Assembly: GCA_017470425.1 (NCBI GenBank)
Contig: JAFUYT010000026.1
Coordinates: 54,291 to 118,290 of the forward strand
From: Bacteroidaceae bacterium
GTDB lineage: Bacteria > Bacteroidota > Bacteroidia > Bacteroidales > Bacteroidaceae
Direction: 5' to 3'
DNA: 64,000 bases
The notes below the pieces were generated by a model. It was not told where the DNA came from and did not search any database. It saw nothing but the letters and a program-made list of their open reading frames with translations. Positions 11,727-41,200 of this stretch are shown here, piece by piece. Position numbers and translations under genes: made by a program. Position 1 is the stretch's first letter. Each line of letters begins with the position of its first letter.

Positions 11727-11816
11727 CTTGGAGACACCTCTCCTTCCGCACAAGCCCCCTCGGGATTCTCTCCCCCGGGGGGCTCTTTCATCTTCGTAAA
11801 CTGCATCATGAAGCGT

Positions 11817-11878: not shown

Positions 11879-11930
11879 GCCACAGCCTTTTGGCATAATT
11901 GCTAGCAAAATCGATATAAAACCGTCACCA

Positions 11931-12007
11931 CCCTCACCTGCCGTCACCCGAACCCTCACCTGCCGTCACCCGAACCCTCACCTGCCGTCACCCGAACCCT
12001 CACCTCG
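11931..12007. repeat. 22-bp tandem repeat (CCCTCACCTGCCGTCACCCGAA), about 3.5 copies
   Basis: Identical units start at 11931, 11953 and 11975, with a partial fourth. The array is bracketed by inverted AAACCGTCACC (about 11919) and GGTGACGGTTT (about 12041-12058). Confidence 0.85.
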
Positions 12008-20360: not shown

Positions 20361-20467
20361 TAATTCTTGGTTCTTCTAGGTTCTCCTAGGAACTCCAAGG
20401 TTTTCCTAGGCATTCCTATGTTTTCCTAGGCATTCATAGGTTTTCCTAGGCTGCCTTAGATCCTAGG
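20361..20467. repeat. 10-bp periodic tandem repeat (TTYTCCTAGG-like, about 10 units, five exact CCTAGG sites)
   Basis: Consecutive 10-nt blocks end in AGG or a near variant. CCTAGG occurs at 20385, 20405, 20425, 20445 and 20462. The repeat spans the aminotransferase stop and the spacer before the DAHPS gene. Confidence 0.8.
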
Positions 20468-21759
20468 CTTTGTATCCTTTTGAGCGCCTCGCGCATCCGC
20501 TCCTCCTTGGCGCAGAGCGAGATACGGATGTAGCGGGCGCCGTTGCTGCCGAAGATGAAGCCGGGGGTGATGAAGACGCGTGCCCCGTGGAGCACGCGCT
20601 CCGTAAGCACCTCGACATCGGCGTAGGCATCGGGGATGCGGCCCCACAGGAACATTCCCGTCTGTGCCGGGTCGAAGGTACAGCCCAGCGCTGTCATGAT
20701 TTCCTCGGCGATGTGGCGCCGGCGTCCGTAGGTGACCTCGTTCATCTCGTGGTGCCACTCCTCGCTGTTCGCCGTCAGCGCCTCGGCGGCAGCCAGCTGA
20801 ATGGCGCGGAACGTGCCGTTCTCGACGTTCGTCTTCACCTTCAGGATCCATTGCACAAACTGCGCGTTGGTGCAGAGCATCGCCACGCGCCAGCCTGGCA
20901 TATTGTGCGACTTCGAGAGCGAGTTGAACTCGATACAGCAGTCCTTGGCGCCAGGCACCTGGAGAATGGAGAGCAGGCTCTGATCACTCTGATTATTCAG
21001 ATTACTCTGATTACTCTGATTACTCTGATTACTCTGATTACTCTGATTACTCAGATTATTCAGATTACTCAGATCACTCTGATGATTCTGAGGCCTGATA
21101 AAGCTATACGGATTATCATTCACCACCACGATGGCGTGGCGCTGCGCGAAGGCCACGAGCTGCTCGTAGGTCTCGCGGCGGGCGGGGGCGCCGGTCGGCA
21201 TGTGGGGATAGTTGGACCACAGCAGGCGGATGCGCTTACCCTCGGCGGCGCTCTGCTGCACGAGGGCCTCCAGCTGCTTGAAGTCGGGCTGCCAGCCGCC
21301 CTCGGCTGTGAGGTCGTAGTTGATGACCTCGGCTCCTAACAGGCGCGACAGCGAGGTGTAGGTGGGGTAGCCGGGGTTCGGCACCAGCACGCGGTCGCCG
21401 GGGTTCACGAAGGCCAGGGTGGCGTGCAGGATGCCCTCCTTGGAGCCGATGAGCGGCTGCACCTCTGTGGCTGGATCCAGTTCCACACCGTACCAGCGGC
21501 GGTAGAACGTGGCCATCGCCTGACGCAGCTCCGGCGTGCCCACCGTGGGTTGGTAGCCGTGGCCGTCGGCCTTGCGCGCCTCGCGGCACAGCACCTCGAT
21601 GGTATGCTCCGAGGGCGGCATATCGGGGCTGCCGATAGCCAGCGAGATGATGTCCTTGCCCTCGGCGTTCAGCTGTGCCACCTCCTTCAGCTTGCGGCTG
21701 AAGTAGTATTCCTGTACGAGCGAGAGGCGCTCGGCGGGTTCAAATGCTTTCTTTTCCAT
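20446..21759 (-). CDS. Class I/II PLP-dependent aminotransferase (aromatic/prephenate aminotransferase candidate)
   Basis: PLP-lysine motif SLSKSHNMPGWR and an aromatic-operon context. It carries a 36-aa in-frame microsatellite insertion. Confidence 0.85.
   Translation of the reverse strand: MEKKAFEPAERLSLVQEYYFSRKLKEVAQLNAEGKDIISLAIGSPDMPPSEHTIEVLCREARKADGHGYQPTVGTPELRQAMATFYRRWYGVELDPATEVQPLIGSKEGILHATLAFVNPGDRVLVPNPGYPTYTSLSRLLGAEVINYDLTAEGGWQPDFKQLEALVQQSAAEGKRIRLLWSNYPHMPTGAPARRETYEQLVAFAQRHAIVVVNDNPYSFIRPQNHQSDLSNLNNLSNQSNQSNQSNQSNQSNLNNQSDQSLLSILQVPGAKDCCIEFNSLSKSHNMPGWRVAMLCTNAQFVQWILKVKTNVENGTFRAIQLAAAEALTANSEEWHHEMNEVTYGRRRHIAEEIMTALGCTFDPAQTGMFLWGRIPDAYADVEVLTERVLHGARVFITPGFIFGSNGARYIRISLCAKEERMREALKRIQSLGSKAA
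20982..21089. repeat. 9-bp microsatellite, 12 units, in frame within the aminotransferase
   Basis: GATTACTCT-type units start every 9 bp from 20982 to 21081. They are translated on the minus strand as SNQ/SNL-type triplets (..SNLNNLSNQSNQSNQSNQSNQSNLNNQSDQS..). Confidence 0.9.
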
Positions 21760-22837: not shown

Positions 22838-23047
22838 TTCTTCCGTTTCTTCCGTTCCCCCTCTCCCCTTTCCCTCCTTCCTTCCTCCCTCCCTTCTTCT
22901 CCCTTCTCCCTTCCCCTTTCCCTCCTTCCTTCCTTCCTCCCTTCTTCTCCTTCTCCTCCGTCCCCTTCTTTCTCCCGCCCCCTCCTGCCTTCCCCCTGCC
23001 CCCCGCCCCGTTTCCGGCGGTTCGTCCGTCGGCTCCTCCCTCCCTCG
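22838..23047 (+). repeat. Polypyrimidine (C/T) tract of about 200 bp on the + strand
   Basis: 22855-22959 is pure C/T (105 nt) and the flanks have only scattered G. It has an internal duplication of roughly 50 bp (CCCCTTTCCCTCCTTCCTTCC...CTTCTTCTCC). Confidence 0.9.
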
Positions 23048-23359: not shown

Positions 23360-24934
23360 ATGAAGAATAGTAGAGGCATACGACTTTTGTGGACGCTGAT
23401 TCTCATGGTGTGGGGATTGCCGGGCTGCTCCTTTGCTCTCGTCAAGGTGGCTCCGCCGCCGGTCGTTGGTGTGTTATTGAGCGGCGATTTGCCGCTGGAC
23501 ACGCTTGGCTTCTACGACCGTTATCCCTTCATCCGTTTTGTGGGCAGTCAGGAGGATGCCAGCCTCGTGCAGCTGAGCGACGACGAGATCCTCGACCAGG
23601 CCGGAAAGGTAGTGTTCCGCGTGAACCGCTACGATGTCTTTACCAACGATTCCCTTTTACATGAACTGGAGACACTCATCTTGCCCCGGATCAACCGGGA
23701 CAGCCTGAGGCTGTGCCGTATCGTGGTGCGTGGTGCCGCGTCGCCCGAGGGTCCTGTGCCCAACAACCGTATGCTCGGACGTCGTCGTGTGGCTACGCTC
23801 ACTAATTTTTTACGCGCGCGTATGAGCGTGCCCGTGGACGAGCGCAACTTTACTACCGAGGCCGTCACCGAGGATTACCGCCTGTTGCTGACCATGATGC
23901 GGCGCGCCGCAGATCCCGACCTCGATGCCGTGCAGCGGCTCTGCAACCGCCACCTGCCCCGCTATGAATACACCCTTCTGAAGCGAGAACTGCAGCGCCT
24001 GCAGGGTGGCCGCCTCTGGCGCCGCCTCCTCAAGGACTACTTCCCCGAGCTGCGTGCAGCGAGGGTGGTGCTGTTCTTCGAAGAAGCTAAGCCCCAGAAG
24101 GAAACACCAGAAGCTATAGAAACGCCAGAAGCTCCAATGATTATAGAAGCTGTGGAAGTTCCGGAAACGCCAGAGCTCCCCCTTGCCCCCCGCGTCCTCA
24201 GCATCCCGCGCCGCGAGCTGCTCTCGGTGAAGACCAACCTGCTGTTGGATTTCGCCTATGTGCCGGGCTACGACCGGTGGTGTCCCATCCCCAACGTGGC
24301 CATCGAGTACTACCCGCTGCGGGGGCACTTCACGTATGGCGCCTCGCTGGACTTCCCCTGGTGGCAGCACTACAGCGACCATAAGTTCTTCCAGATCCGC
24401 AACTACCAGCTGGAGGCCCGCTATTATCTGCGTTCCGGCAGCATCGAGCGTCGCACGCCCGGCGAGGGCGCCGCCTTCCGCGGACTCTACTTCTCTGCCT
24501 ACGCACATGCCGCCCTCTTCGGTATCTGCTTCGATGCAGACCGTGGCTGGGAGGGTGAGGCGCTGGGCGGCGGCCTCGGCGTAGGCTATGTGCTGCCCCT
24601 CGGCCGCAAGGGCCACTGGCGCATGGAGTTCTCCGCGCAGGTCGGCGTCTTCTTCAGCGGCTACGACCCCTATCAGTACGAGAACCCCGTGAACCCCTAC
24701 TACCGCGACGGCCTCTATTACTACAAGTGGACGGGCCGCAAGGCTGACTTCCGCGAGCGTCAGTACCGCTTCACGTGGTTCGGTCCCACCCGCGCGGGCA
24801 TCACCATCTCCTATGACATCCTCTACCGGCGCTGGCGCAAGAAAAGCGAACGGCAGCTCCCCGCCAGCTCCATCGGCACCGAGGGATGGCGCGGCGCCAG
24901 CTTCCGAGACCACGAGCTCGTGGTGGAGGAGTGA
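23360..24934 (+). CDS. Outer-membrane protein of fimbrial loci (OmpA-like ASPEG region plus a DUF3575-like C-terminal beta-barrel region)
   Basis: Signal/lipobox-like N-terminus (LMVWGLPGCS), motif RGAASPEGPVPNNRMLGRRR, a Pro/Glu-rich linker, and an aromatic-rich C-terminal half (LLLDFAYVPG.., YYLRSG, FSAQVGVFFSGY). Family recognition is from memory and is not a search result. Confidence 0.55.
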   Translation: MKNSRGIRLLWTLILMVWGLPGCSFALVKVAPPPVVGVLLSGDLPLDTLGFYDRYPFIRFVGSQEDASLVQLSDDEILDQAGKVVFRVNRYDVFTNDSLLHELETLILPRINRDSLRLCRIVVRGAASPEGPVPNNRMLGRRRVATLTNFLRARMSVPVDERNFTTEAVTEDYRLLLTMMRRAADPDLDAVQRLCNRHLPRYEYTLLKRELQRLQGGRLWRRLLKDYFPELRAARVVLFFEEAKPQKETPEAIETPEAPMIIEAVEVPETPELPLAPRVLSIPRRELLSVKTNLLLDFAYVPGYDRWCPIPNVAIEYYPLRGHFTYGASLDFPWWQHYSDHKFFQIRNYQLEARYYLRSGSIERRTPGEGAAFRGLYFSAYAHAALFGICFDADRGWEGEALGGGLGVGYVLPLGRKGHWRMEFSAQVGVFFSGYDPYQYENPVNPYYRDGLYYYKWTGRKADFRERQYRFTWFGPTRAGITISYDILYRRWRKKSERQLPASSIGTEGWRGASFRDHELVVEE

Positions 24935-25023
24935 GGAATGAAGAATCCTTCGAAATATCGAAATATCGAAATAACGAAATGCCGAAATAACGAAATATCG
25001 AGAATTAAGAATTGAAAACTGAA

Positions 25024-26247
25024 ATGAGATTGAATAGAATCATAGCAAACGTGACAGTACTACTTCAGAGCATCCGTTCTGAAGCACGCCGTTTACTATG
25101 CATTCTTTCCATCTTTCAATTTTTCAGTCTTTCAATTTTATCAACCTCCTGCGAACGCAAGCCGCTGCTCCACCTCTACGACGAGGGCGATGTGTCGCTC
25201 GATCTGCCCATCGTGGATCTCGACCTCCAGGTCTATTGGGACTACGAGATCGGCTACGACATCACCTACGACTGGCGCGCCGAGTGGTACTACGGCTGGG
25301 ACGAGACCGACCAGTCCATCTTCGGTCCCATCGGCTACACCGAGCCCAGCATCTTCGAGCTGCGCCGCTACTACACCGGCGACACACCCCTGGCACCCCA
25401 CAACAGCGTCCTCGCCACCACCATCGCCGGCCACAGCTTCCAAGGGCAGTACGAATGGGGCTTCTGGGACATCCTCGTATGGAACCAGGTCTATACCCTC
25501 GACGGCGTGCAGAGCCTCCACTTCGACGAGGAGAGCACCCTCGACCAGGTCACCGCCTACACCAACCCCTCCATGCACGCCTCCCGCTACCACGCACCCC
25601 GCTACACGCAGGCCTTCTACGAGCCCGAGCCCCTCTTTGCCGCCTACGACCGCGCCATCGAGATCAACCGCAACCTCGACGGCTTCATCTTCGACGAGGA
25701 GCGCAACGTGTGGGTCAAGACACTCGGCATGGAACTCCTCCCCATCACCTATATATACCTCCCGCAGATCATCCTGCACCACAACAACGGGCGCATCACC
25801 TCCGTGCAGGGCGACGGCAACATCTCCGGGATGGCACGCACCACCGTCGTCAACACCGGCCAGGCCGGCCCCGACGCCATCGCCGTCTATTTCCACACCC
25901 GCATGAAGCCGCACTGCGACAAGGCCGGTGAGGATGTCGATATCATCGGCGGGCGCCTCATGACCTTCGGCATCACCAACACCGCCGCCAACCGCATCTC
26001 GCGCGCCGACGACCTCGCGGATGCCAACCGTCACTACCTCGACGTGACGATGCAGTTCAACAACGGCATGGACTCCACCTTCGTCTTCGACGTCACCCGC
26101 CAGGTGCGTCAGCGCTACAAGGGCGGCGTCATCACCGTGGAGCTCGACATGGACACCGTCCCCATCCCCCGCCGCCGCGGCGGCTCCGGCTTCGACGCCG
26201 TCGTCAAGGACTTCGAGGATGGCGGCACACACGAATTTGAAATGTAA
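25024..26247 (+). CDS. Fimbrial-locus lipoprotein (DUF5119 / Mfa2-FimB anchor-like candidate)
   Basis: Lipobox LSILSTSC followed by ERKPLL, typical of these families. It follows a DUF3575-like gene. The track start at 25012 is a TTG, and the ATG at 25024 is preferred. Confidence 0.45.
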   Translation: MRLNRIIANVTVLLQSIRSEARRLLCILSIFQFFSLSILSTSCERKPLLHLYDEGDVSLDLPIVDLDLQVYWDYEIGYDITYDWRAEWYYGWDETDQSIFGPIGYTEPSIFELRRYYTGDTPLAPHNSVLATTIAGHSFQGQYEWGFWDILVWNQVYTLDGVQSLHFDEESTLDQVTAYTNPSMHASRYHAPRYTQAFYEPEPLFAAYDRAIEINRNLDGFIFDEERNVWVKTLGMELLPITYIYLPQIILHHNNGRITSVQGDGNISGMARTTVVNTGQAGPDAIAVYFHTRMKPHCDKAGEDVDIIGGRLMTFGITNTAANRISRADDLADANRHYLDVTMQFNNGMDSTFVFDVTRQVRQRYKGGVITVELDMDTVPIPRRRGGSGFDAVVKDFEDGGTHEFEM

Positions 26248-27583
26248 CTCTCACATAAATTACTCATAAATTAAGCCATAAATTATTCATAAATTAAAAG
26301 TTACATAAATTAGAAGATACACCAAGAGTAAATAATTCATGATCAATTCGTGATTAAATTCATGGATAATTCATGTAAAACATAAAACCTTCTCACACAA
26401 ATTACTCATAAATTAAGCCATAAATTATTCATAAATTAAAAGAAACACTTGAGATAATAATTCATGATCAATTCGTGATTAAATTCATGGATAATTCATG
26501 TAAAACATAAAACCTCTCTCTCACACAAATTACTCGTAAATTTAACCATAAATTACTCATAAATTAAAGATACAAATATATGAACCCTAAGGACTATTCA
26601 GATATTGTGTACAATGTAATTGGCGCAGCCATGAAAGTTCACAGCGAACTGAACTGGGGGCTATTGGAGCCGCTTTATACTGAAGCACTCCACATGGAAC
26701 TGGAAGAATGTGGCATCCCCAACGAAATGGAAGCCCATCTGCCATGCTATTACAAAGACAAGCAGATGAAGAAATCCTACCAACCAGACCTATCTGTCGA
26801 GGGGATCATTATTGAACTGAAATCCACGAGTGACCTGATTCCTGCACACCGGGCACAACTCTTCAACTATATGCGACTGACCAAGTCGCCCATCGGGCTT
26901 CTGATTAACTTCGGAAGAAAAAGCCTTCAAGGCGAACGATATGCCTATTTAGAAGAAACAAACGAATGTGTGCTTCTTGACCGAAACATGAATATGCTCT
27001 ATCCGGCCGACTCTGAACCGGACACCGATGACTATTGGAGATTCATGGAAGAGGAGCAGAGCTACATAAATAATCATTCATGATCCATTCAAGAAAAATA
27101 ATTCATGATCAATTCGTGATTAAATTCATGGATAATTCATGTAAAACATAAAAACTTCTCACACAAATTACTCATAAATTAAGCCATAAATTATTCATAA
27201 ATTAAAAGAAACACTTGAGAAAATAATTCATGATTAATTTGTGATTAAATTCATGGATAATTCATGTAAAACATAAAACCTCTCTCTCACATAAATTACT
27301 CATAAATTAAGCCATAAATTATTCATAAATTAAAAGAAATACTTGAGATAATAATTCATGATCAATTCGTGATAAAATTCATGGATAATTCATGTAAAAC
27401 ATAAAACCTTCTCACAAATTACTCATAAATTAAACCATAAATTATTCATAAATTAAAAGATACACTTGAGAAAATAATTCATGATCAATTCGTGATTAAA
27501 TTCATGGATAATTCATGTAAAACATAAACCTCTCTCTCACATAAATTACTCATAAATTAAGCCATAAATTATTCATAAATTTA
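26248..27583. repeat. AT-rich (about 24% GC) tandem array of 125-128 bp units (one 142 bp), interrupted by the GxxExxY gene
   Basis: Unit starts (TCACA[C/T]AAATTACTC) at 26251, 26393 and 26521, then the gene, then 27159, 27287, 27412 and 27537. Each unit holds 3x CATAAATT-type sub-repeats followed by 4x AATTCATG-type sub-repeats. Confidence 0.9.
26580..27083 (+). CDS. GxxExxY family protein (PD-(D/E)XK-like fold family)
   Basis: Signature GLLEPLYTEAL and a family-typical core (PDLSVEGIIIELKS, AHRAQLFNYMRLT, GLLINFG). 167 aa. Confidence 0.8.
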   Translation: MNPKDYSDIVYNVIGAAMKVHSELNWGLLEPLYTEALHMELEECGIPNEMEAHLPCYYKDKQMKKSYQPDLSVEGIIIELKSTSDLIPAHRAQLFNYMRLTKSPIGLLINFGRKSLQGERYAYLEETNECVLLDRNMNMLYPADSEPDTDDYWRFMEEEQSYINNHS

Positions 27584-27746
27584 ATTTTCCGCGGCCACCG
27601 CGACGACGAACCAGACAGACAACAACGCCCAGCGATTTCCGTGCCTTTGCGCACCCTGACCGCGACATTCCGCGGTCCCGATCAAACCAGATCAAAGTAC
27701 AAAACAATTTTTAATTCATTTATTTATTCACCAAATTCAAATCATT

Positions 27747-29645
27747 ATGAAAACAAAGTATTTTTTCCTCGCAGCCCTCGGCGCCCTCGCGCTGACCAGC
27801 TGCGTCAATGACGAGTTCGTCGGAGCTGACAGCTCGCCGGCCGCTGAGGCTGCTGACGGTGCCATCAACTTCGGATTCAATTTCCAAAATGTCACTCGTG
27901 CTGACCAAGTGGGTGTTGATGCTGCCACCACTCTGCAGAACCAGTTTATCGTCTATGGAACCAAGCATGCTTCCGCTGAAGCAGCTGATGCAAGTAACGA
28001 TGAAGTCGTATTCCAGAACTATGTAGTAGAATATGAGGAAAATTCAGCTGGTCACACGGCATCCAATACTCACAACTGGGAGTATGTTGGAAAGACTCAT
28101 TATGATGCAGCGAAAGTATCCCCAGCTATCACAGGTTCTCAGGCTATTAAGTATTGGGACTACAGTGCAGTTCAGGGTTACACTTTCTACGGAATTGCAT
28201 CAAAGGCTGACATCGCAACTAACAACAAGGTTACTGTTACTAAGACAACCACAGGTACTACCGTTTATGACAAGGGTTATAGTGTTGTGCTGTCTTCTGG
28301 TGCTAATTTGGATCAGTTGTTCGTCGCTGACCGTAAGCCTGTTGCAAAGACAGACTTCAACAAGCCTGTAACGCTGACCTTCCGCAACTTTGGTGCACGT
28401 GTCCGTGTTGGTTTCTATGAGACTATTCCCGGATACACGGTTACTATTAACAAGTTTTATGCAGATGATGATGCAGCTACAGCTATCACATCATTTGCAC
28501 CGATGGCTGACGCTAAGACGACTTTTACGGCTGCCCTGCAAAACATCAGTACAACTCCTACTTCTCCGGCAACAAACACAATGACCGTTTCATATTATGA
28601 TAATACTGATGCTTCTATTGAGAATCATGTTAAATTAACGGCCTCAACTGTTGATTACGATTACAATTTTGCACTTGGAAATGGTGTTGTAGGTTCAGTG
28701 CTGGGAACTTCAGCAGCTTCACCGACATGGGACAACAGCGGCAATTACACCACTGTTTATCCATTTGAGGCAAATACCAACCCCATGCTGATAAAGGTCG
28801 ATTATACTCTAACAGCAGAGGATGGTGCTAGCGAGACTATTGTGGTTCAAGGTGCTAATGTGGTGGTACCCACTCAGTACGTTAAATGGAAGAGCAACTT
28901 TGCCTATACCTATCTTTTCAAGATTAGCGACAACACGAATGGCACGACAGATGGTACGACACAGGGACTCTATCCCATTACCTTTGATGCCGTTACTGTT
29001 GCTGTTGCTGATGATAATACTCAGGAGACAGTTACTACCTTTGAGGATTATTCAGTCACGACCTATGCTAATGGTTCCAAGGTTACAACCAATGATGAAT
29101 ATAAGGCTGGAGAAGATATTTATGTTGTAAAGACCAACAATTCTACGGGTGCTGTTATAGCTCCAACTGCTATTGGAGCGTCAGCTAACAATGCACAAGT
29201 ATATGTTGCTACGACTACTGGTGATGTTATCTCGGAAGCTACAGTTAAGGCTCGTCTCACAGGTTCTCCCAATGGCATTACTTTAACAGCTACGACATCG
29301 GACGAAATCGCTACACTTGTGCAGAATGTTCCTGCTGCAGATGGTACTAATTATGACTTCGGCACTAATGGTGCTGTTAAGTTTACACCTTCACCTGCTG
29401 CAGCCGCTACCTATGTATATGTGTTTACTCGCACGGCTAATGTAGCCCCAGGTTATAATCCTGTTGGTTCTGGTACATATAGTGGTGGCACGACTTACTA
29501 TTTCAAGACTACAGGCGATGTTTATTATCCTGCTGAGGGTATCAATGCAGGAAACTTCGATACCTACAAGGCAAGTCTATATACTCAGACTTCTGCCGGT
29601 ACAGCTGGAGAATATGATATCAAGGTCATAAAGGTTAATCCCTAA
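27747..29645 (+). CDS. Large fimbrillin-like (type V pilin, Mfa1/FimA superfamily) lipoprotein, paralog A
   Basis: Lipobox LALTSC (Cys19), a conserved TRAD site at Arg51, the core motif WKSNFAYTYLFKISDNTNG..GLYPITFDAVTV, and a C-terminal strand EYDIKVIKVNP. It is a paralog of 30308-32242. Confidence 0.65.
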   Translation: MKTKYFFLAALGALALTSCVNDEFVGADSSPAAEAADGAINFGFNFQNVTRADQVGVDAATTLQNQFIVYGTKHASAEAADASNDEVVFQNYVVEYEENSAGHTASNTHNWEYVGKTHYDAAKVSPAITGSQAIKYWDYSAVQGYTFYGIASKADIATNNKVTVTKTTTGTTVYDKGYSVVLSSGANLDQLFVADRKPVAKTDFNKPVTLTFRNFGARVRVGFYETIPGYTVTINKFYADDDAATAITSFAPMADAKTTFTAALQNISTTPTSPATNTMTVSYYDNTDASIENHVKLTASTVDYDYNFALGNGVVGSVLGTSAASPTWDNSGNYTTVYPFEANTNPMLIKVDYTLTAEDGASETIVVQGANVVVPTQYVKWKSNFAYTYLFKISDNTNGTTDGTTQGLYPITFDAVTVAVADDNTQETVTTFEDYSVTTYANGSKVTTNDEYKAGEDIYVVKTNNSTGAVIAPTAIGASANNAQVYVATTTGDVISEATVKARLTGSPNGITLTATTSDEIATLVQNVPAADGTNYDFGTNGAVKFTPSPAAAATYVYVFTRTANVAPGYNPVGSGTYSGGTTYYFKTTGDVYYPAEGINAGNFDTYKASLYTQTSAGTAGEYDIKVIKVNP

Positions 29646-29719
29646 TCACTCCACATCCCCGAATCTATGTCAAAACAGAGCGTATCACTCATGATTTGAC
29701 ACTACGATGAGCAACAGAA

Positions 29720-29749
29720 GCCTACCGAGGTTCGACTCCTCGGTAGGCA
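29720..29749 (+). other. tRNA-like acceptor/T-arm minihelix
   Basis: GCCTACCGAGG-TTCGACT-CCTCGGTAGGC-A: an 11-bp stem capped by a canonical T-loop sequence (TTCGAnT) plus an unpaired A. Confidence 0.5.
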
Positions 29750-29808
29750 ACAAAGAAAAAGACAGCATGAGGCCGGTGCCTCGGAAGAAAGGAATAAAAA
29801 TACACTCG

Positions 29809-30258
29809 ATGAGCAGGAAAGAAGCATTAAAACTGTTTGAAGACAGGAAAGTCCGCGTCGCCTGGGACGACGAACTGGAGAAATGGTATTTCTCCATCGT
29901 GGATGTATGTGGTATTCTTACTGAAAGTAAAGATGCCCTAACCGCTCGTAAGTATTGGAATAAACTGAAGCAGAGACTGAAAGAGGAAGGAAATGAAACG
30001 GTGACAAATTGTCACCAGTTGAAACTTCATGCCGCCGATGGTAAGATGCGTCTCACGGATGTCGCAGACACCGAGCAACTCTTCCGCATCATGACCAATG
30101 TGGAACTCCTGTTAAACTCGCTCGCCGAGGCCTCTGCTACTGAAATCTCCAAGCAAGAGAATCCCAAAGGATTCACTCGTAATGCCGACGTGGCTAAGCG
30201 TGGTGGCCAGGTGGCAAAAGCTGCCCGCAATCAGTTGGAGACTCAACTTGGCCATTAA
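29809..30258 (+). CDS. Bro-N / DinD-like DNA-binding protein, apparently internally shortened
   Basis: N-terminal KVRVAWDDELEKWYFSIVDVCGILTES...KYWNKLKQRLKEEGNETVTNCHQLKLHAADGKMRLTDVADTEQL is typical of Bro-N/DinD-like proteins. The C-terminal tail (LNSLAEASATEISK...AKRGGQVAKAARNQLE) follows directly without the usual middle region. The start at 29809 is preferred over 29707. Confidence 0.5.
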   Translation: MSRKEALKLFEDRKVRVAWDDELEKWYFSIVDVCGILTESKDALTARKYWNKLKQRLKEEGNETVTNCHQLKLHAADGKMRLTDVADTEQLFRIMTNVELLLNSLAEASATEISKQENPKGFTRNADVAKRGGQVAKAARNQLETQLGH

Positions 30259-33700: not shown

Positions 33701-35002
33701 TTGGCCGGGGCGCTGGGGCGCAAGGCGACCAGGGTCCTGGGGCTCTTGGGGCTGATAGGGCTCGTGGGGCTCGTGGGGTGCTCTGCTGAGGTGGAGGAGC
33801 CGGTGACGGCGGAGGACACACAGGGGATGCCTGTGGAGGTCCGGAGCTCCGTGACCGCCTTCGAGGAGGTGGTCAGGGGGGCGGCGGCTGCGAAGGCGGA
33901 TGGGACCTGGCCTGACGGCCAGGGCACTGCGGCGGGACAGGGCACTGCGGCGGGACAGGGCACTGGGGCGGCTGGGGCTGCGGTGACACGGGCTTGGTTG
34001 CCGCCCAGCGGGTACTCGCTCTATGATGGCGCGGACAGCAAGACGATAGGCGTGCGCTTCACGCAGAACGGGGAAGAGCCGTTGCAGGGCTACTTCTTCA
34101 AGAGCAGCGGGCAGTGGCGCGTGAGTCTGCTGGAGGGCGCTGAACTGGCGGCTGAGACGTACTACCTCTATGGCTATATCCCCCACACTACGGGTATGTC
34201 GAGCGAGATCTCCTCGACGGTGACGCCCGGCGACAACAGCGCCTACAGCAGCAAGGCCGTGATGAAGCTCAAGAACGTGCCGACCGTCATGCCCTCGGAC
34301 CTCTGCGTGGTCATCGGGGCCAAGAACGGCAGAACGGACTACCGTGAAGCCTCCGACTACAGCGTCACGGGGCTGACGCGCGGAAACTTCGAGTATGTGG
34401 CCACTGCCACCTCGGGCGAGGGCACTGGCAACTATGTCTATATGCTCTTCGACCACCTCTACTCAGCGCTGCGCATCCAGATGAAGGTGCACTCCGAATA
34501 CACGGCGCTGCGCACCATCAAGCTGAAAGAGCTTCGTCTGCAGACCGCCACCGACGACGGCGCTGCAAAGGCGAAAACAGATATCACCGTCGCGCTGGCC
34601 GCCAACGGCACCGGCAGCGACCCCATCACCAGCGTCACCTTCACACCCGACGCGACAAGCGGCGACAGCGACGGCGTGGTCTTCACGTCGGGTGCAGGCC
34701 AGACGCTGACGACCGACTACAGCACGTTCCAGAGCCACTTCATGCCTCACGGCGTGACGAAGCTGCTGCTGACGAGCACCTACGACGTCTATGACAATAA
34801 CCGGACGCCAGAACACCCCGACGGCAATCTCGTCCGTCAGGACTGCCAAGCAACTAACGCCCTCGAGATCAGCAAGCTGTTTGACCGACAGACAGAAGCG
34901 AGACGGGGCTTCAGATATACCATTAACATCACCATCCGCCCGACATACCTCTATATGTTGTCGGAGCCGGATCTGAACAATCCGACGATGGAGGTGGAGT
35001 GA
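33701..35002 (+). CDS. Fimbrillin-like accessory lipoprotein D (start uncertain)
   Basis: No in-frame ATG lies before the lipobox. The TTG at 33701 gives (M)AGALGRKATRVLGLLGLIGLVGLVGCS. The track ORF starts at the TTG at 33569 inside the repeat element. The C-terminal motif RGFRYTINITIRP is reminiscent of a pilin core. Confidence 0.45.
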   Translation: MAGALGRKATRVLGLLGLIGLVGLVGCSAEVEEPVTAEDTQGMPVEVRSSVTAFEEVVRGAAAAKADGTWPDGQGTAAGQGTAAGQGTGAAGAAVTRAWLPPSGYSLYDGADSKTIGVRFTQNGEEPLQGYFFKSSGQWRVSLLEGAELAAETYYLYGYIPHTTGMSSEISSTVTPGDNSAYSSKAVMKLKNVPTVMPSDLCVVIGAKNGRTDYREASDYSVTGLTRGNFEYVATATSGEGTGNYVYMLFDHLYSALRIQMKVHSEYTALRTIKLKELRLQTATDDGAAKAKTDITVALAANGTGSDPITSVTFTPDATSGDSDGVVFTSGAGQTLTTDYSTFQSHFMPHGVTKLLLTSTYDVYDNNRTPEHPDGNLVRQDCQATNALEISKLFDRQTEARRGFRYTINITIRPTYLYMLSEPDLNNPTMEVE

Positions 35003-35061
35003 GACTGCACCCCCTCCCGGCCTCCCCAAGGGGAGGAGAGAGGAAGGTAAAAAGGAAAAGG

Positions 35062-35127
35062 AAATTGAAAGAGATAAGGAACATAGGTAAAGGAAGGAGA
35101 CCCGGCCTGACGGCCGGGGCACTGCGG
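35062..35127 (+). repeat. 66-bp intergenic element, copy B
   Basis: Matches 33581-33646 except for about 4 positions. It lies between the stop of gene D and the start of giant gene 1. Confidence 0.85.
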
Positions 35128-35230
35128 CGCGGGGCTGCAAAGATGACCAAGGCGGCCGGGGCTGCTAAGGCGGCCGGGGCACTGCGGCGCGGGGCTGCAA
35201 AGATGACCAAGGCGGCTGGGCTGTGGGGGC
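35111..35230 (+). repeat. 60-bp direct duplication that includes the giant-gene start codon
   Basis: CGGCCGGGGCACTGCGGCGCGGGGCTGCAAAGATGACCAAGGCGG occurs at 35111-35155 and 35171-35215. This gives two in-frame ATGs (35143 and 35203). Confidence 0.9.
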
Positions 35231-38200
35231 TGTTGTGGCTGTTGCTGCTGTGGCCGCTGGGATTGGCTGCGCAGATCAAGGTGGGTGGCAGCATTTACGG
35301 CGGTGGTAACATGGGCCAGGTGCACGGCAGCACGACCGTGACCGTGAAGGAAGGTGACCTGAACAAGGTGTTCGGCGGTGCGCGCATGGCCAACGTGGGC
35401 GGCAATGCCTACGTGAACATCGACGGCGCCCACGCCACCGGCTACACCGTCATCAACTATGTCTTCGGCGGTAACGACATCGCCGGCAACATCGGCACAG
35501 CCGAGGCTGTGGGCGAGGCTCTGCCCGCAGAACTCGAGGGCAACGCCGACGGCGTGGATAACACCTGGAACACCTATGTCCACCTCTCTTCTAAGATGAC
35601 GGATGCCGTCCCCGCCACCCTCGCCTCCGACAACCAGAAGACCTACATCGGTCAGCTCTATGCCGGCGGCAATGGTGATTACTTCTACGACTCCTCGACC
35701 GCGGACGGGAAGACCACACACTACATCTACACGAAAGATCCCCTCGAAGGCGGCACGCTTCTGGAGACCATCGTCACCGACGAGGGTGATGTGGGCTTCC
35801 AGACACCTCACTTATCCAAAGCCTACCTCGACATGCAGGGCGGCTCCATCGTGTATGCCTACGGCGGCGGCAACAAAGCCACTGTGACGGAGAAGACCGT
35901 CATCCACGTGGATAACCCCAGCGAGGTCGTGAACCACCTCTTTGTCGATGAGAACGGTGTGGAGGCTGCGTCGTCGGTCTATGACGATTATGAGACTTCA
36001 GAGCCCAAGACCCTCGCCGCCGGCTACACAGAACTGCTGACCAACACCCGCTTCAAGGAGGGCATGGGCATCAACCTCGGTTTCTCGCGACCGAGCAGCG
36101 GTGACTTCCAGGTGGGCCGTCTCTTCGGTGGTAACAACCTTGAGGAAATGGCTATCCGTCCGACGTGGAACCTGCAGAGCGGCAAGATCCGTAACCTATA
36201 CAGCGGTGGCAACAAGGGTGCGATGACATCTCCCGAGGGCCTGCTGCTGGAGATCCCAGCCACTTCTTCCATCGTCGTGGATAACCTTTTTGGCGGCTGC
36301 CGTATGGCCGACGTGCGACCGTCGGTGAACGGCGTCTATACGCCGACCGTGAACCTGCCCGGCTACTACTTCCCGAATGAGCTGTCTGCGCGCGTGCTCG
36401 TGCGCGGGGGCGATATTAATAATGTATATGGCGGTAACGACGTGACGGGCCAGGTCTATGGCGGCAACGCCGTCGGCGTCTATGCCACCATCCGTGGCGA
36501 CATCTACGGCGGTGGCAACGGCGACTACCCCTACACCGACAATGAAGACCTCCGGGAGAGTAGCATCTATGGTGACCTCTACTATTCCACGAGCGGCTAC
36601 ACCACGTCCTACGACGCGCTGAACGCCTTCCGTCCCAACGCCGAGCAGGTGTCCATCCGTGTGGCGGGCGAGACCCGTCCGACCATCATCAAGGGTAGTA
36701 TCTACCTGGGTGGTAACTGCGCGTCGCTGGCCACGCACAAGGAGAATCCGATGGTGGAACTGAAGATCGGTTCCAACGTGCTTGCCGACAATGTCTATCT
36801 GGGCAACAACGGCGCAGGCATGGTCGATAAGGACTTCCTGAAGCTCTATGCCGGCTACGTGGATGAGAATGATGAGTACAACGCCAGCGAGGGCACGAAG
36901 TTCAGCAGCCTGAACCTGCGCGGCAGCTCCGAGTTTGCCGAGTACATGGAGGGCGTGGCGATGAACCTGATGCCCGCCGTGGTCTTCGACAACACCGCCA
37001 ACGGCGACCCCGCCACCTATACGCCGAACTCGAGCTACATCGGCTCCTTCTTCTGCGGCGGTAACGTGGGCAGCATGGCCGTCGAGGGCAAGGAGACCTT
37101 CACCTTCGACGAGCAGTTGAATATCTTCAATAAACTTGTCGGCGGATGCAACAATGCCAACGTGGCGGCGAGCGAGTGGAACGCGGCCTACGAGGGCGGC
37201 GTCCTCGGCAGCAAGGCCGAGCGCGCCAGCTACACCGAGGGCGGCAAGATCAAGGATCGTCTGGAAATCAATCTGGAGAAGCTGACTATCACGCCGCTGC
37301 GCTGGAACGAGGAAATGACCTATCCCGTCTGGAATACCAACAAATTCGTCACCTACCAAGCCGTGGAGAACGGCACGACCCTGACAGCAGGCGAGACCTA
37401 TTATACCTCTGACAGTGGCGCAGGCGAGTTCACGGCCGTGGGCAGTGAAGTCGCCGACGGCACAAACTATTATGAGTTCATCAATGACTTCGTGCAGGTT
37501 TCCAGCAGTGCTGTCGATAAGGATGCGCGCCTGCTCGACGGCAACGTGTATGGCGGCTGCTACAACAGCGGCCACGTGAACGGTAATGTCATCATCAACA
37601 TCAACGAAGATTTGTTGAAGAAGGACGAAATCTTCGGCACGGGCATCAGTGATTTCTACGGCAGGGCAAAGTCGGGCGTAGATTTCGAGGGGCAGCGCGA
37701 CGACCTGATGGCCGTGGCCCTCGCCGTCTTCGGCGGCGGCTATGGTGCGGACACCGAGATCTGGGGCAGCACGACCGTGAACCACAACAAGGGCTACGCC
37801 TTCCAAATCTATGGCGGCGGCGAGGAAGGAGTCGTGGGCCGGAAGGTCGCCCACACCGATGACCACGGTGAGGTCACGCAGGAGTATGAGTTCAACCCTG
37901 CCTACAGCAGCACCGTGAACCTCAACGGCACCACGCCTGTCTATTCCTCCGACGGCACCGTCGAAGGTCTTGCCGAGACCGAGTATATCTACGGCGGCGG
38001 CAACGAGGGCGATGTCTGCGGCAACACCCTCGTCAACCTGGGTAACGGCCGCATCTTCGATGCCTTCGGCGGCGCCAGCGATGCCGACGTCCTCGGTCAC
38101 ACCGAGGTCTATATCGGTCGCCAGCCCAAGGGCGACGGCACCTACAAGGCCGGCTTCCCGTGGGTGCGTGACATCGTCTATGGCGGTAATGACTTCGGCG

Positions 38201-41200
38201 GCAAGATATGGGGCGAGTACGAGACGGGCTACGACTTCACGAAGCGCCTCCGCAACTTCAGCACCGACCGCGTCTCGCTGCATGGCACGCCGACCGCCGG
38301 TGCCCCGGGCCTGCTGAAGTCCTCGTCCTACGTCGAGTACCTCGAAGGTCGTGTCGATACCATCTTCGGCGGCGGCTACGGCTTCTATGACTATTCCAAC
38401 GAGACGCTTTATGGTGCCGGCAATTCCATGCCCGTTCAGGAGAGCGCCTTTGTCAACATTCGTCCTGTGACGCACGACCACAACCTCGTCAACTACGTCT
38501 TCGGCGGCGGCACGGGCTATCCCCGCAACCGCGTGGGCGACAACGCCCAGGATCGCAGTTACGTGCTCATCGACATCCCCGACGGCGTGGAGCGCTTCGG
38601 TGCGATGGAGGTCTTCGGTGCCGGAGCCTTCAACGGCCTGGGTATGGGCTTCACCAAGGAGGAGACCTTCGCCGCCGGCTTCAATCTGGACAACGCCTCC
38701 GCCGTCGTCGATCTGCTCCACGGACAGATAGGCAACGTCTATGGCGGCAGCTACAACGAGGGCAACACGCGCCGCACGGTCGTCAACGTGCCTGCGGCAT
38801 CTACCATCCAGGTCGGCCGCATCTTCGGCGGTGCCTATGGCACGCAGATCCTGCCGCCCTGTGACGTCTATGAGACCCACGTGAACTACTTGAACACGAG
38901 TGAGAACGCCCGCGTGAGCGCCATCTACGGTGGCAACAACAACGAGCGCCGCTCGCTCTACACCCATGTCAACATCTCCTCGCCCGTATGGTCCAACAAG
39001 GAGAAAGGCTATATGGCCAAGGTCTATGGTGCCGGGCGCGGTATCGACACTTGGTCGGAATACACCGAAGTGAACCTGCTCAGCGGCGCCAAGGTCTATG
39101 AGGCCTACGGCGGCGGCGAGATGGGTCACGTGCTCAATGCCGAGAGCGTACAGCGGTATATGCAGCTGTACCATGATACGCCCTCGTCACAAATCTCCCA
39201 TCAGGATCCCTTCTGGAGCCAGACCGGGAACTGGGTCGGCGGAACGGTCGGCGGTACGCTGATAGACGATGCCGATCTCCGTGACCGCTGGGATCGCGAG
39301 TGGAAGGATGCCTGGACGTTCGGCGATTACTATACGCCGACGGCGACGGACGCCGAAGATGCTGATGGCGACGGTGATACCGAAGAAATCTCTTTCACCG
39401 ACTATGCCACCAACGCTGCCACGAACCTCACCAACAGCCTGCAGGTGCGCACGGCCGAGCTGGACGAACGCGACTACAGCGGCTACGCTGACGACGACAA
39501 AGCACGTAACTATCAGAAATACAACACCAACGTCATTATCCACGAGGGAGCCTCTGTCGGGAACTACGCCTATGGCGGCGGCTATGGTGAGGTCGCGACC
39601 CACCTGAGCGGCGACACCTACGGCAACACCTATATCGCCCTGCTCGGCGGCTCCGTCACCAAGGACCTCTACGCCTCTGGTTCGGCTGGTAATGTCAACG
39701 ACCTCTTCGGCGTGGGTGCCTACAATGCCAGCACGAACCCCACCGGCTTCACAGCCACCGCCACGGCCTACGTGAAGGGCGGCACGTGCCGCAACGTCTA
39801 TGGCGGCGGATGGAAGGGCGATGTCGGAACCCACTCGGGCACCATCGCAGACGATCCCTCCGGTGACATCCCCGGCGAGACGCACGTCGTCATCGGCGAC
39901 CTCGCAGGCACCAGCTTCACCAACGGTATCCCCGCCATCCAGCGCAACGCCTATGGCGGCGGCGAGGGTGAGGATGAAGACGGCGGCGCCGTCTATGGCA
40001 CCACCCATCTGACCCTTAACAACGGCTACATAGGCTATGCCTACAATGCTGAGGGCAGCGATAACCCCAAGACCACAGACTTCGACGAGCGCTACGAGGA
40101 GAAGATCGAGGACGAGACCCGCACCATGCCCAACACGTGGCTCACGGAGGCTGGCTGTCTGTTCGGCGGCGGCTATACCGACAACAGCTTCGTCGATAAG
40201 ACGCAGGTGAACATTTATGGCGGTCACGTCCGCAACAGCGCCTTCGGCGGCGGCGAGGTGGCTCCCATCGGGCGCGGTGACATGAAGGAGAAGGCGGGCG
40301 GCAGCGACTATGAACTGAAGGGCATCTACCGTCCCGGCAAGACGCTGGTCAAGATGTTCGGCGGTCATGTTCATCAGAACGTCTTCGGCGGCGGCCGCGG
40401 CTTCGACAACCTGGCCCGCGTCGGCTCGCTCCACTGTCCCGGCTACATCTTCGGACAGACGGAGGTGCGCATCCACGGCGGCGAGATCGGCACGGCTGAG
40501 GGCGTGGAGGACGGCGACGGCAACGTCTTCGGCGGCGGCGACGTAGGCTTTGTGTATAGTGCCTACGAGAATCCCGACGGCAGTTTTGCTCAGGGTAAGA
40601 AAGACGGTGTCAGATACGACGGCATCTACCAGGGCTACTATTACAAACACAATGGAGAGGATTTCGTAACCCTCACTGTAGATAGGGATGAAGACGGTGT
40701 AGCAGATACAGACGGTGAAGGGAACCAGATCAAAGAGCGCCAGTTCACCGAGGACTGCAAGGTGCTCGTCGAGCCCAACATGAAGGTCATCACTCCCGTC
40801 ACCATCAACGGGCACAGCTATGAGCCGGGCGCCTTCGTACCCATTGCCGACCTGAATACGCTGAAGAACAAGACACTGGATGCTTCCACCTGGGAGTGCC
40901 TGGATCCCACCGGCATCATCATCCATAACGCCGTCTTCGCGGGCGGTAATATGCCTTCGGGCTCAAAGGCCACCAGCGCCAACACCGCCTCAGTCTATGG
41001 CAACGCCACCGCTTCGGTAGAAGACATCTTCCACCGCGACATGATCACGCTCGGTACCCGCCACACCGGCGGTCTCTACGGCGATGGCAACCTGACCCTC
41101 GTGGATGGTTACCGCGAACTGAACATCACCAACTACGGCACCGACTACTACAGTATCGCTCAGGAAATCAGCATCGGCGACTATCATAACCTGCCCGACC

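Follow-up and report, generated by a model that had tools for sequence, protein, structure and literature searches.

A probable BIME-like cluster of palindromic repeats around a GxxExxY gene, inserted in a type V pilus operon of a Bacteroidaceae bacterium

The AT-rich repeat array in the window (the whole 64,000-nucleotide stretch of Bacteroidaceae DNA analyzed here) is not a pilin control region, but consists of locally amplified, hairpin-forming repeats of a kind found in many gut and rumen Bacteroidales. We consider it probable that this array represents a BIME-like cluster of palindromic repeats belonging to one clade of GxxExxY genes (PD-(D/E)XK, Cas4/RecB-like) in the Prevotellaceae and other Bacteroidales. 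The module resembles the REP/RAYT pairs of proteobacteria, although its enzyme is another, and the literature searched contains no description of it.

The basic module consists of an L arm, an ORF and an R arm, with three to four sub-repeats in each arm (CAyrAAT(T) in L, the reverse complement in R) placed one helical turn apart. When paired, the two arms can form a stem of 35-50 bp whose loop is the ORF. Gene-less L-R hairpins would represent the miniature form of the same module, and in the window the units may have undergone tandem amplification to the left and right of the gene via unequal recombination or slippage, with gene conversion potentially keeping the units of the array alike. Such a module would also account for an AT-rich repeat class that probably fragments Prevotella metagenome assemblies.

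Organization of the repeat array and its gene

The array is real and spans 26249-27583, with seven L half-units alternating with six R half-units in the order L R L R L, GxxExxY gene, R L R L R L R L along the window (Table 1). TRF reports a period of 125 repeated 2.1 times at 26304-26568 (90% matches) and a period of 128 repeated 3.9 times at 27095-27581 (92% matches), while a repeat search of the window recovers seven copies of the 57-nt L half and six full copies of the R half, together with one degenerate R start. Each L half-unit contains four CAyAAATT sub-repeats, the first of them a CACAyAAATT variant, and each R half-unit contains four AATTCrTG sub-repeats; the spacing of 11-12-11 bp is strictly kept in all arms of the array, and L and R are imperfect reverse complements of each other. 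The preliminary description had reported an AT-rich tandem array with a GxxExxY gene inside it and two motif types that are near reverse complements, and TRF, motif counts and shuffles confirm the array while the L/R comparison confirms the complementarity; its count of four R-type sub-repeats per unit also stands, whereas its three L-type sub-repeats are in fact four. The low GC content that it noted is likewise evident (0.23 in the left block and 0.22 in the right block, against 0.57 in the window). Every one of the paired motifs in the window (16 and 11) falls within the array, where shuffles expect 0, and the remaining 62.6 kb of the window contain no other L/R cluster or dispersed copy. 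Since whole units follow one another head to tail without unique spacers, a CRISPR array was rejected.

Table 1. Features of the repeat array and the adjoining pilus genes, in positions of the window.
Feature	Position	Strand	Basis or remark
Mfa2/DUF5119-like fimbrial anchor candidate	25012..26247	+	weak DUF5119, 20 bits, below cut-off
Left repeat block L R L R L	26249..26579	+	GC 0.23
Left-block L arms	26249-26305, 26391-26447, 26519-26575	+	
Left-block R arms	about 26329-26390, 26454-26518	+	
GxxExxY gene (TIGR04256 / PF13366 PDDEXK_3), 167 aa	26580..27083	+	HMM hits
Degenerate R-arm start (R')	27070..27098	+	overlaps the gene's last codons and stop
Right repeat block R L R L R L R L	27095..27583	+	repeat search, TRF
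Right-block R arm starts	27095, 27220, 27348, 27471	+	
Right-block L arms	27157-27213, 27285-27341, 27408-27464, 27535-27583	+	
Anchor-pilin spacer and leader	27584..27746	+	resembles the spacer of empty locus L212
632-aa lipoprotein, predicted type V pilin family	27747..29645	+	AF2 structural match

Short-read metagenome assemblies can mis-join repeats, and assembly artefact was one of the outcomes that the preliminary description named as fatal to its reading. The architecture, unit order and unit number are nevertheless the same in three independent assemblies, namely the window and two independent ENA metagenome contigs, one of which (L002) is identical to the window throughout the 1.7 kb that align. 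Five positions differ in the second contig (L001), with one substitution in the R3-L4 linker and, within one R unit, three substitutions that restore the consensus and a 1-nt deletion. Because related arrays moreover occur in many other samples and shuffles give 0 motif pairs, the probability of an assembly artefact or of chance low-complexity sequence is negligible. The L-R units of the array are 91-98% mutually identical, against 71-79% identity to units in other genomes, and the first unit of the array carries a 16-nt internal duplication (26295-26322). Folded as RNA, the right-block units reach -31.6 to -34.7 kcal/mol on the minus strand (z -4.5 to -5.4) and -17 to -19 kcal/mol on the plus strand; Rfam searches of the array at gathering and permissive thresholds returned nothing real.

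The GxxExxY gene is placed exactly at one L|R junction. Its product belongs to the GxxExxY family, with scores of 121.2 bits for TIGR04256 (cut-off 35) and 113.2 bits for PF13366 PDDEXK_3 (cut-off 22), and these are its sole NCBIfam and Pfam hits. The PD-(D/E)XK catalytic core (E...D...ExK) is conserved: E35, D70, E79 and K81, together with Q93xxxY97, are invariant in 22 relatives, leaving the D-ExK and QxxxY motifs intact. The AF2 model (pLDDT 89) has its nearest folds, weakly matched at TM 0.38-0.40, in Cas4 SSO0001, lambda exonuclease and RecE, and the gene has a dN/dS of 0.07 against its L121 relative. Searches of PADLOC, PHROG and PDB sequences gave 0 matches to the protein, and no relative of the gene was present in the viral contigs searched. 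GxxExxY/PDDEXK_3 is a large family catalogued as "function unknown" (PMC3424549), and the literature searched does not address GxxExxY biology. A degenerate R start, with 72-83% identity to the R starts, is made up of the last codons of the gene and a further 15 nt, in agreement with the earlier observation that the end of the ORF imitates the repeat; the stop codons of relatives are also frequently located in or beside the first R sub-repeat.

Repeat arms around related GxxExxY genes

In all contexts examined, which are unrelated to one another, L and R are inverted arms that flank the gene of the relatives. A Prevotellaceae MAG (L017) encodes a protein of 83% identity within the arrangement L R L, gene, R L R, and further modules occur at L121 and L122/L123, between MFS and GH77 genes (L124), and between acetyltransferase and EamA genes (L125-128). 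Across 74 metagenome loci with at least 100 nt of flank on each side (out of 80 fetched), the L-type motif occurs 1.85 times per 150 nt upstream of the gene and the R-type motif 1.36 times per 150 nt downstream, each against a background of 0.03, amounting to an enrichment of 45-66 fold adjoining the gene; the zero-scoring loci among the 74 carry variant sub-repeats. Similarly, a motif-blind count places CACGAAT at the top of the 7-mers in L arms and ATTCATG/ATTCGTG in R arms, and the pairing energy is -24.9 kcal/mol for cognate arms, -18.9 for non-cognate arms and -13.3 for shuffled arms.

Most modules of the family are solitary, with a single L and a single R around the gene within ordinary operons, and tandem LR arrays adjoin many relatives (L147, L149, L152, L168, L176, L185, L192). 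In addition, gene-less LR hairpins are found far from any GxxExxY gene, for example at prfC-mscL in four MAGs, with about 10 gene-less clusters in about 217 kb of the relatives' flanks. A survey of the orientation of gene-less units relative to their neighbors was dropped, owing to crude ORF calling and shadow ORFs in GC-rich DNA. A distant GxxExxY gene (L028, 37% identity) lacks the arms, thus the association holds for one clade and not for the whole GxxExxY family. A motif scan of genome contigs (3x CATAAATT) returned at least 118 stretches, most of which are tandem repeats of 10-13 bp without relation to the array, from organisms such as cyanobacteria, methanogens and Borreliella, and true relatives account for 15 of 123 among the matches listed, all of them Bacteroidales.

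The repeat units appear to be under constraint, as they diverge less between genomes (77% identical) than the saturated synonymous sites of the gene (pS 0.82). Signs of recent transposition, in the form of near-identical modules in different flanks, were not found, and all candidate pairs share their immediate flanks. No clear target-site duplication is present at solitary units, as the palindrome grades into the flanking sequence (TTTTGAACACG ... CGTGTTCAAAA). The preliminary description had considered a satellite used by the gene as a landing pad; a strong association between repeats and gene does exist, yet it runs in another direction: L and R belong to the gene as its inverted flanking arms, and the array is their local amplification.

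The juxtaposition of a tandem repeat array and a small nuclease gene also recalls type III toxin-antitoxin systems, in which the array RNA would neutralize the nuclease. Such a system is scarcely credible here, given that most relatives have only one L and one R, that the repeats are inverted on both sides of the gene rather than direct and upstream of it, and that the protein is PD-(D/E)XK/Cas4-like, not ToxN/AbiQ-like, with 0 PADLOC hits.

Insertion of the module into a pilus operon

The genes surrounding the array, considered here as context only, have the components of a type V pilus operon: a DUF3575 gene (52 bits), an Mfa2-like anchor candidate that comes after it, and pilin lipoproteins of the FimA/Mfa1 fold. 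The anchor candidate, whose homologues in Prevotella MAGs carry the name DUF5119 protein, has its stop codon 1 nt ahead of the first L arm, and a 409-aa protein of the window scores 27.7 bits for Mfa_like_1. The 632-aa lipoprotein downstream has no significant sequence-family match; its AF2 model matches the Bacteroides type V fimbrial protein 4qb7 (E 7.5e-9), supporting its predicted membership in the pilin family. The preliminary description had placed the array immediately upstream of the major pilin, of which the pilin-family assignment is retained, while the gene starts 164 nt after the array. The intervening sequence is the native anchor-pilin spacer, retained downstream of the insertion; in it an AT-rich leader comes after a GC-rich segment (CCGCGG...CCGCGG), and L and R motifs are absent.

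The pilin gene is a neighbor of the repeat element and not a part of it. In loci without the module, pilin homologues directly follow the anchor gene, and all seven of the closest orthologous operons (anchor 70-77% identical) lack the module and have a repeat-free spacer of 69-214 bp, which identifies the module as an insertion and not a native pilin regulator. The comparison shows that the module entered the anchor-pilin spacer in this lineage, the close orthologous operons being empty. Its presence does not track the anchor and pilin trees: L122 (anchor 58% and pilin 47% identical) has the module, and L214 (anchor 70% and pilin 69% identical) does not. For pilus operons this is a caution, as a conspicuous array would here be an inserted passenger outside the conserved regulatory design. 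Low pilin GC was rejected as a sign of co-transfer, since pilins are also at 0.43-0.49 in module-less operons.

A dedicated cis-regulatory array, acting on the pilin through phased binding sites or intrinsically curved DNA, could be suspected from the short distance to a pilin-family gene, from the phasing of the sub-repeats, and from the three related modules upstream of pilin paralogues (window, L121 and L122). It is improbable, as the repeats are missing from the seven closest orthologous operons and these units also border GxxExxY genes in other settings, among them sugar-transport and acetyltransferase loci. Moreover, a periodogram places the A/T-tract period at 11.4-11.7 bp, with almost no power at the 10.5 bp required for strong planar curvature, and the suggestion of curved DNA controlling pilin expression is not supported. 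The related proposal of an array of binding sites, of iteron, centromere or silencer type, is sustained insofar as phased sub-repeats fit protein binding, but no replication-initiator or partition genes occur near the array or elsewhere in the window, the neighbors being pilus and housekeeping genes, and the proposal is weakened by the fact that the units belong to the GxxExxY module and not to the locus.

No TAnnTTTG box is present on the plus strand of the array, and the single box on its minus strand, at 26580, is within chance expectation. Since no canonical Bacteroidetes -7 box was found between 23181 and the pilin gene, the array is likely transcribed with the operon, in which case it would be at most an incidental RNA-processing or attenuation site between anchor and pilin; it may modulate anchor-to-pilin read-through in this lineage.

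The arms could instead serve expression of the gene or RNA processing. As an RNA-level element, the L/R stems would insulate or excise the ORF in an RNase III-type manner, or stabilize or terminate the mRNA, leaving the array as a by-product and the protein without a role on the repeats. Consistent with this, modules lie inside operons and are co-oriented with their neighbors in five of five gene-called contexts (about 80% according to crude ORF calling), the loop has little room beyond the ORF, whose start codon follows the L arm after 3-45 nt and whose stop codon falls within or close to the R arm, the stems are long, and the plus strand of the array has no promoter box. We nevertheless regard this as rather unlikely, because the sense strand folds more weakly, the antisense strand being better in 31 of 47 independent clusters, with wobble-type asymmetries of 99 vs 72 favoring antisense (p about 0.02-0.05) and window folds of -17 kcal/mol for sense and -32 to -35 kcal/mol for antisense; the 10-12 bp helical phasing would also be superfluous for a plain RNA stem, and Rfam holds no such family.

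Three of the closest relatives (window, L121 and L122) are located upstream of pilin genes, which may reflect a locus preference.

Relation to known repeat systems

The system closest in kind is REP/BIME-RAYT (REPIN), which is proteobacterial and has an HUH/Y1 transposase as its enzyme (PMC2817692, PMC3116915, PMC3337134). As in that system, the extragenic palindromic units occur singly, in inverted pairs and in clusters with regular spacing and alternating orientation, and a small enzyme gene is bordered by inverted repeats; also common to both are purifying selection on the gene, stable chromosomal positions without signs of IS-like hopping, and element-specific repeat variants. The enzyme here is a PD-(D/E)XK GxxExxY protein and not an HUH/Y1 (IS200/IS605-like) transposase, and the module is thus an analogue of REP/BIME-RAYT rather than a member. 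The arms are AT-rich with three to four phased 10-12 bp sub-repeats, whereas REP has a GC-rich stem with a GTAG/CGTC head, and the host is a member of the Bacteroidota. While REP reaches tens to hundreds of dispersed copies per genome, the 62.6 kb of the window outside the array hold 0 extra copies.

By analogy with RAYT and REP/REPIN, the GxxExxY nuclease may recognize the phased sub-repeats, or the hairpin or cruciform that they form, and such recognition could maintain or propagate the repeats. We raise as a tentative possibility that in this clade GxxExxY proteins act as PD-(D/E)XK nucleases, specific for structure or sequence, that copy, home or maintain their own phased palindromic repeats, in a second partnership of the REPIN-RAYT type. 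The link to specific, apparently constrained repeats provides a concrete, testable hypothesis for the substrates of GxxExxY nucleases. If the nucleases do act in this way, the partnership would be mechanistically independent, with a Cas4/RecB-like nuclease in place of the HUH transposase, would be widespread in gut and rumen Bacteroidota, would give the large orphan family TIGR04256 its first function, and would carry the REP/RAYT concept into a further phylum and a further enzyme fold.

Arrays of imperfect palindromic sites are also formed by integron attC arrays and CALINs and by the pdif modules of Acinetobacter. A recombination-site cassette array of this kind (integron attC/CALIN or Xer pdif-module), with the hairpin units as sites for a site-specific recombinase and small ORFs (GxxExxY, toxin-antitoxin genes) as its cassettes, would match the alternating orientation of the sites, the better folding of one strand, and the small, promoterless, co-oriented ORFs between palindromic sites; another array slot in L121 holds a 113-aa ORF and a RelE-like remnant, and a PIN-toxin remnant adjoins the array of L017. 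We consider it very improbable, as the window contains no integrase or recombinase, the units have neither RYYYAAC/GTTRRRY core sites nor an Xer-type core and are often directly adjacent, and most modules are solitary L-gene-R arrangements in ordinary operons.

The Correia elements of Neisseria and the pneumococcal BOX elements, the latter with a tandemly repeated middle module, are MITE-like hairpins that are co-transcribed with their neighbors. They share with the units described here a size of roughly 100-150 bp, an intergenic inverted-repeat form, modular internal repeats and a possible effect on flanking expression, but depend on IS transposases or on no known enzyme and, unlike the module, enclose no conserved nuclease ORF. 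Automated MITE catalogues cover Bacteroidota (bioRxiv 10.1101/2024.01.18.576219), and gene-less L-R units would be expected among the MITE calls in such catalogues. No published description of the repeat family, or of its link to GxxExxY, was found in the literature searched, including catalogues, in keeping with the preliminary description's statement that no such element is described; its kind is nonetheless recognizable, in the REP/BIME clusters with a repeat-flanked enzyme gene.

The intervening sequences of 23S rRNA can likewise bear ORFs, encoding the four-helix-bundle "S23p" protein (TIGR02436/PF05635). Similarly to the module, these are insertions in a host transcript that carry a small, functionally uncharacterized ORF as the loop of a long stem; the module differs in lying outside rRNA, in its protein fold and in its sub-repeated arms. 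PF05635 genes lie between housekeeping genes in related Prevotella loci.

Anatomy and reproducibility of the array

Tandem Repeats Finder, direct reading of the sequence and repeat families all confirm the array in which the preliminary description had seen 125-128 bp units split by a GxxExxY gene, with one block of period 125 (2.1 copies, 90% matches) and one of period 128 (3.9 copies, 92% matches). The same reading and repeat families resolve each "unit" into a left half (L; 57 nt, TCTCACAyAAATTACTCATAAATTAAGCCATAAATTATTCATAAATTAAAAGAAACA, four CAyAAATT sub-repeats) and a right half (R; ~65-70 nt, including AATAATTCATGATCAATTCGTGATTAAATTCATGGATAATTCATGTAAAACATAAAACC, four AATTCrTG sub-repeats), which are imperfect reverse complements, much as had been proposed for the two motif types. 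The halves run L R L R L, gene, R' R L R L R L R L, giving seven L, six full R and one degenerate R start (R'). R' overlaps the gene's final codons and its stop, in keeping with the earlier remark that the gene's end imitates the repeat. Sub-repeats are spaced 11-12-11 bp in all arms of the array. Its GC content (0.22-0.23, vs 0.57 for the window) is as low as first described, and within the 64 kb L/R motif pairs are confined to it, with 0 in shuffles. A/T tracts peak in periodicity at 11.4-11.7 bp, and power at 10.5 bp is close to nil, which argues against strong planar curvature and thus against curved DNA, one of the roles initially suggested.

An assembly artefact, also raised at that stage, is very unlikely, because two independent metagenome contigs of the same locus (L001 and L002) carry the same unit number and order, so that three assemblies agree. 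L002 shows zero differences from the window across the aligned 1.7 kb. In L001 five positions are changed: a single substitution lies in the R3-L4 linker, and one R unit has a 1-nt deletion and three substitutions, which restore the consensus and so look like gene conversion. Units are 91-98% identical within the window and 71-79% identical to those of two related loci (L121 and L017); likeness this close inside one array points to units that were recently amplified in place, homogenised, or both.

Features of the window and of related contigs (L017, L121, L210, L211, L214)
Feature	Sequence	Positions
Repeats related to the 8-bp repeat	window	6538-6567; 25104-25136
22-bp palindromic boxes	window	11816-11878; 11930-12005; 47763-47825
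Class I/II aminotransferase gene (- strand)	window	20446-21759
9-bp tandem repeat	window	20978-21091
C/T-rich tract	window	22851-23009
-7 box (+ strand)	window	23181
DUF3575 protein gene	window	23360-24934
8-bp repeat	window	24950-25001
Mfa2/DUF5119-like (anchor) gene	window	25012-26247
Period-125 array	window	26304-26568
-7-like box (- strand)	window	26573-26580
GxxExxY gene	window	26580-27083
Degenerate R start (R')	window	27070-27098
Period-128 array	window	27095-27581
Native-looking spacer	window	27584-27746
183-aa ORF	window	29707-30258
4233-aa ORF	window	34999-47700
PIN-domain fragment	L017	230-420
113-aa ORF and RelE-like fragment	L121	799-1400
23S_rRNA_IVP genes	L210; L211; L214	1-340; 9-430; 7632-8288

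The GxxExxY protein and its repeat arms elsewhere

Judged by its sequence, the product of the enclosed gene is a bona fide GxxExxY/PDDEXK_3 protein: E35, D70, E79-x-K81 and Q93xxxY97, invariant in an alignment of 22 relatives, read as the RecB/Cas4-type motif set. Its AlphaFold model is confident (pLDDT 89), with Cas4 SSO0001, lambda exonuclease, RecE and LHK-Exo as best PDB neighbours at low TM-scores (0.38-0.40). The family, PF13366, was entered as 'Unknown' in a PD-(D/E)XK survey (PMC3424549); the protein has no match in PADLOC, PHROGs or, by sequence, the PDB, and a search of viral contigs found no close relative of the gene. Compared with an 89% identical relative, dN/dS is 0.07, and synonymous sites are saturated against all other relatives compared.

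Database relatives number 1634 at E below 1e-10, and the best 120 of these are at least 57% identical; all contexts examined of these relatives have the same module of L arm, gene and R arm. The arrangement is L R L, gene, R L R in L017 (a Prevotellaceae MAG; protein 83% identical) and L, gene, R L R L followed by a further small ORF in L121 (89%). The module is also present in L122/L123 (76%), between MFS transporter and GH77 genes in L124, and between acetyltransferase and EamA genes in L125-128. Motif density was counted in metagenome loci whose encoded relatives are 57-70% identical. Of 80 such loci, taken without selection, 74 have 100 nt or more of flank on each side, and in these L-type motifs occur upstream at 1.85 and R-type motifs downstream at 1.36 per 150 nt, against a background of 0.03. 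Where the count was zero, the loci carry sub-repeat variants built to the same plan (CAyGAATG paired with ATTCrTG, or ATTACATG). Unbiased 7-mer counting returned CACGAAT, CATGAAT and CATAAAT for L arms and the reverse complements of these for R arms, with a dominant sub-repeat spacing of 10-11 nt. Cognate arms pair at -24.9 kcal/mol, compared with -18.9 for other modules' arms and -13.3 for shuffled ones, so each element maintains the complementarity of its own arms. The units are also constrained, since between the window and L017 they remain 77% identical where the gene's synonymous sites are saturated (pS 0.82), and so evolve more slowly than neutral sites.

Window-like tandem L-R arrays flank many relatives (L147, L149, L152, L168, L176, L185, L192, L145). 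Gene-less units remote from any GxxExxY gene also occur: in at least four different MAGs an L-R hairpin lies between the prfC stop codon and the downstream mscL, and others, among the matches listed, are found in MAGs of Prevotella, Muribaculaceae and Aphodosoma. A distant GxxExxY gene (L028, 37% identity) has no such arms at its locus, making the association clade-specific. Taken together, these contexts indicate that the repeats belong to the GxxExxY gene and that the pilus locus is not their owner. Toxin-antitoxin-like remnants were seen at two of the loci, namely a 113-aa acidic ORF with a RelE-like fragment in an R-arm slot of L121 and a PIN-domain fragment upstream of the L017 array.

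The pilus operon as a host locus

The operon that contains the array resembles those of Bacteroidales type V pili. A DUF3575 protein gene and an anchor gene (weak Mfa2/DUF5119-like match; homologues annotated DUF5119 in Prevotella MAGs) precede the array, and genes for a 632-aa lipoprotein, for a phage-like protein of 183 aa and for more lipoproteins (one with a Mfa_like_1 domain) follow, together with a 4233-aa ORF with zero Pfam matches. The 632-aa lipoprotein has no sequence-family or PDB sequence match; structural matches of its AlphaFold model (pLDDT 70) are fimbrial and 'cell adhesion' proteins of Bacteroides (4qb7, E 7.5e-9, probability 1.0), which supports "pilin-family" for what had been called the major pilin, "major" being an assumption. 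Housekeeping genes (recQ, clpX, tig, valS, aro and phe genes) make up the rest of the window, and the flanking proteins have their nearest named relatives in Prevotella sp. MAGs (~70% identity).

In seven orthologous operons (L209, L210, L212, L214, L216, L217, L218), with anchor proteins 70-77% identical and pilin 69% identical where checkable, the pilin gene follows the anchor gene after 69-214 bp that contain neither L/R motifs nor a GxxExxY gene. Downstream of the array the window retains a native-looking spacer of 164 nt, similar to that of L212, and the comparison marks the module as an insertion in the operon. A dedicated pilin regulator is contradicted by these empty operons and accordingly improbable despite the array's position 5' of the pilin gene; low GC of pilin genes is found in empty operons too (0.43-0.49) and is unrelated to the array. 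Besides the window lineage, the filled sites are L122/L123 (anchor only 58%, pilin 47% identical) and L121 (pilin paralogue 34% identical). Module presence thus does not follow the operon tree, which implies that the module was gained repeatedly or was precisely lost several times. A search for recent transposition found none, near-identical modules always having common immediate flanks, and target-site duplications were not definable. Integrase, transposase, replication and partition genes are absent from the window; integron- or pdif-like cassette sites, which would lack both recombinase and core sites here, are more improbable still.

On the + strand, the canonical Bacteroidetes -7 box (TAnnTTTG) at 23181 is the only one between there and the pilin gene, and the array is probably transcribed together with the operon. 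The 183-aa ORF, directly 3' of the pilin-family gene (phrog_15286 match, E 2e-50; weak Bro-N match), is absent from the related locus L122 and so appears to be a second small insertion. The Prevotella loci L210, L211 and L214 also have small 23S_rRNA_IVP (four-helix-bundle) genes between housekeeping and pilus genes, one of them just ahead of a different short AT-rich repeat (ATTACTCATTACTA); these genes may represent a parallel family of small passenger ORFs. Upstream of the operon lies a long C/T-rich low-complexity tract (TCCC/TTCC units), and the DUF3575-anchor spacer is filled by an 8-bp repeat (TCGAAATA x6.5), a possible slippage-prone tract with related 8-mers at two other places.

Strand asymmetry and likeness to known repeat systems

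An L-R unit folds into a single long stem, and the GxxExxY gene sits exactly at one L|R junction, the loop position. Minus-strand RNA reaches -31.6 to -34.7 kcal/mol (z -4.5 to -5.4) and plus-strand RNA only -17.4 to -18.6, because CATAAATT in L corresponds to CATGAATT in the complement of R, so that the plus strand is left with A.C mismatches while the minus strand forms G.U pairs. The antisense strand is the better folder in 53 of 73 modules; with relatives collapsed the advantage is modest (31 of 47 clusters; asymmetric transitions 99 vs 72, antisense-favouring, p about 0.02-0.05). This may reflect bottom-strand function or, equally, selection, in a phylum that lacks Shine-Dalgarno sites (PMC3155529), for an A-rich, unstructured leader before the ORF. 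A stem acting purely at the RNA level, in processing or insulation, is compatible with the main reading and seems unlikely as the full account. A Bacteroidetes -7-like box on the minus strand (TATATTTG) overlaps the GxxExxY start codon and would drive antisense transcription through the left repeat block, on the best-folding strand; as a single motif it is within chance expectation.

The array anatomy and gene-repeat association are solid, and the best-supported reading, by analogy, is a repeat-enzyme association of the REP/BIME-RAYT kind. Shared traits are palindromic extragenic units, solitary or clustered with alternating orientation, a small enzyme gene, under purifying selection, between inverted copies of the same repeats, and stable chromosomal positions. 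The enzyme here, however, is a PD-(D/E)XK protein rather than an HUH transposase, and the arms are AT-rich and built of phased sub-repeats, making the module an analogue and not a member. A type III TA-like system, for which geometry and protein are both wrong, is among the least probable of the alternatives. With 3-4 phased sub-repeats per arm, set one helical turn apart and inverted from one arm to the other, the module looks like a series of protein-binding sites along one face of a duplex or stem; in this hypothetical mechanism the enclosed nuclease would be the obvious candidate binder. As the preliminary description had supposed, a full-text search of the open-access literature found no published description of the repeat-GxxExxY association; automated Bacteroidota MITE catalogues exist, and gene-less units may be anonymously among their entries.

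Two further repeats were noted in the window. A 9-bp tandem repeat (CTCTGATTA x12.7), in frame within an aminotransferase gene, encodes an inserted run (...SNQSNQSNQSNQSNQ...). Two sets of three tandem 22-bp palindromic boxes share the core TCTCAyGCrTGAGA, one downstream of a tRNA gene and adjoining 3.5 perfect copies of another 22-mer, the other just 3' of the 4233-aa ORF, and look like operator or terminator arrays.
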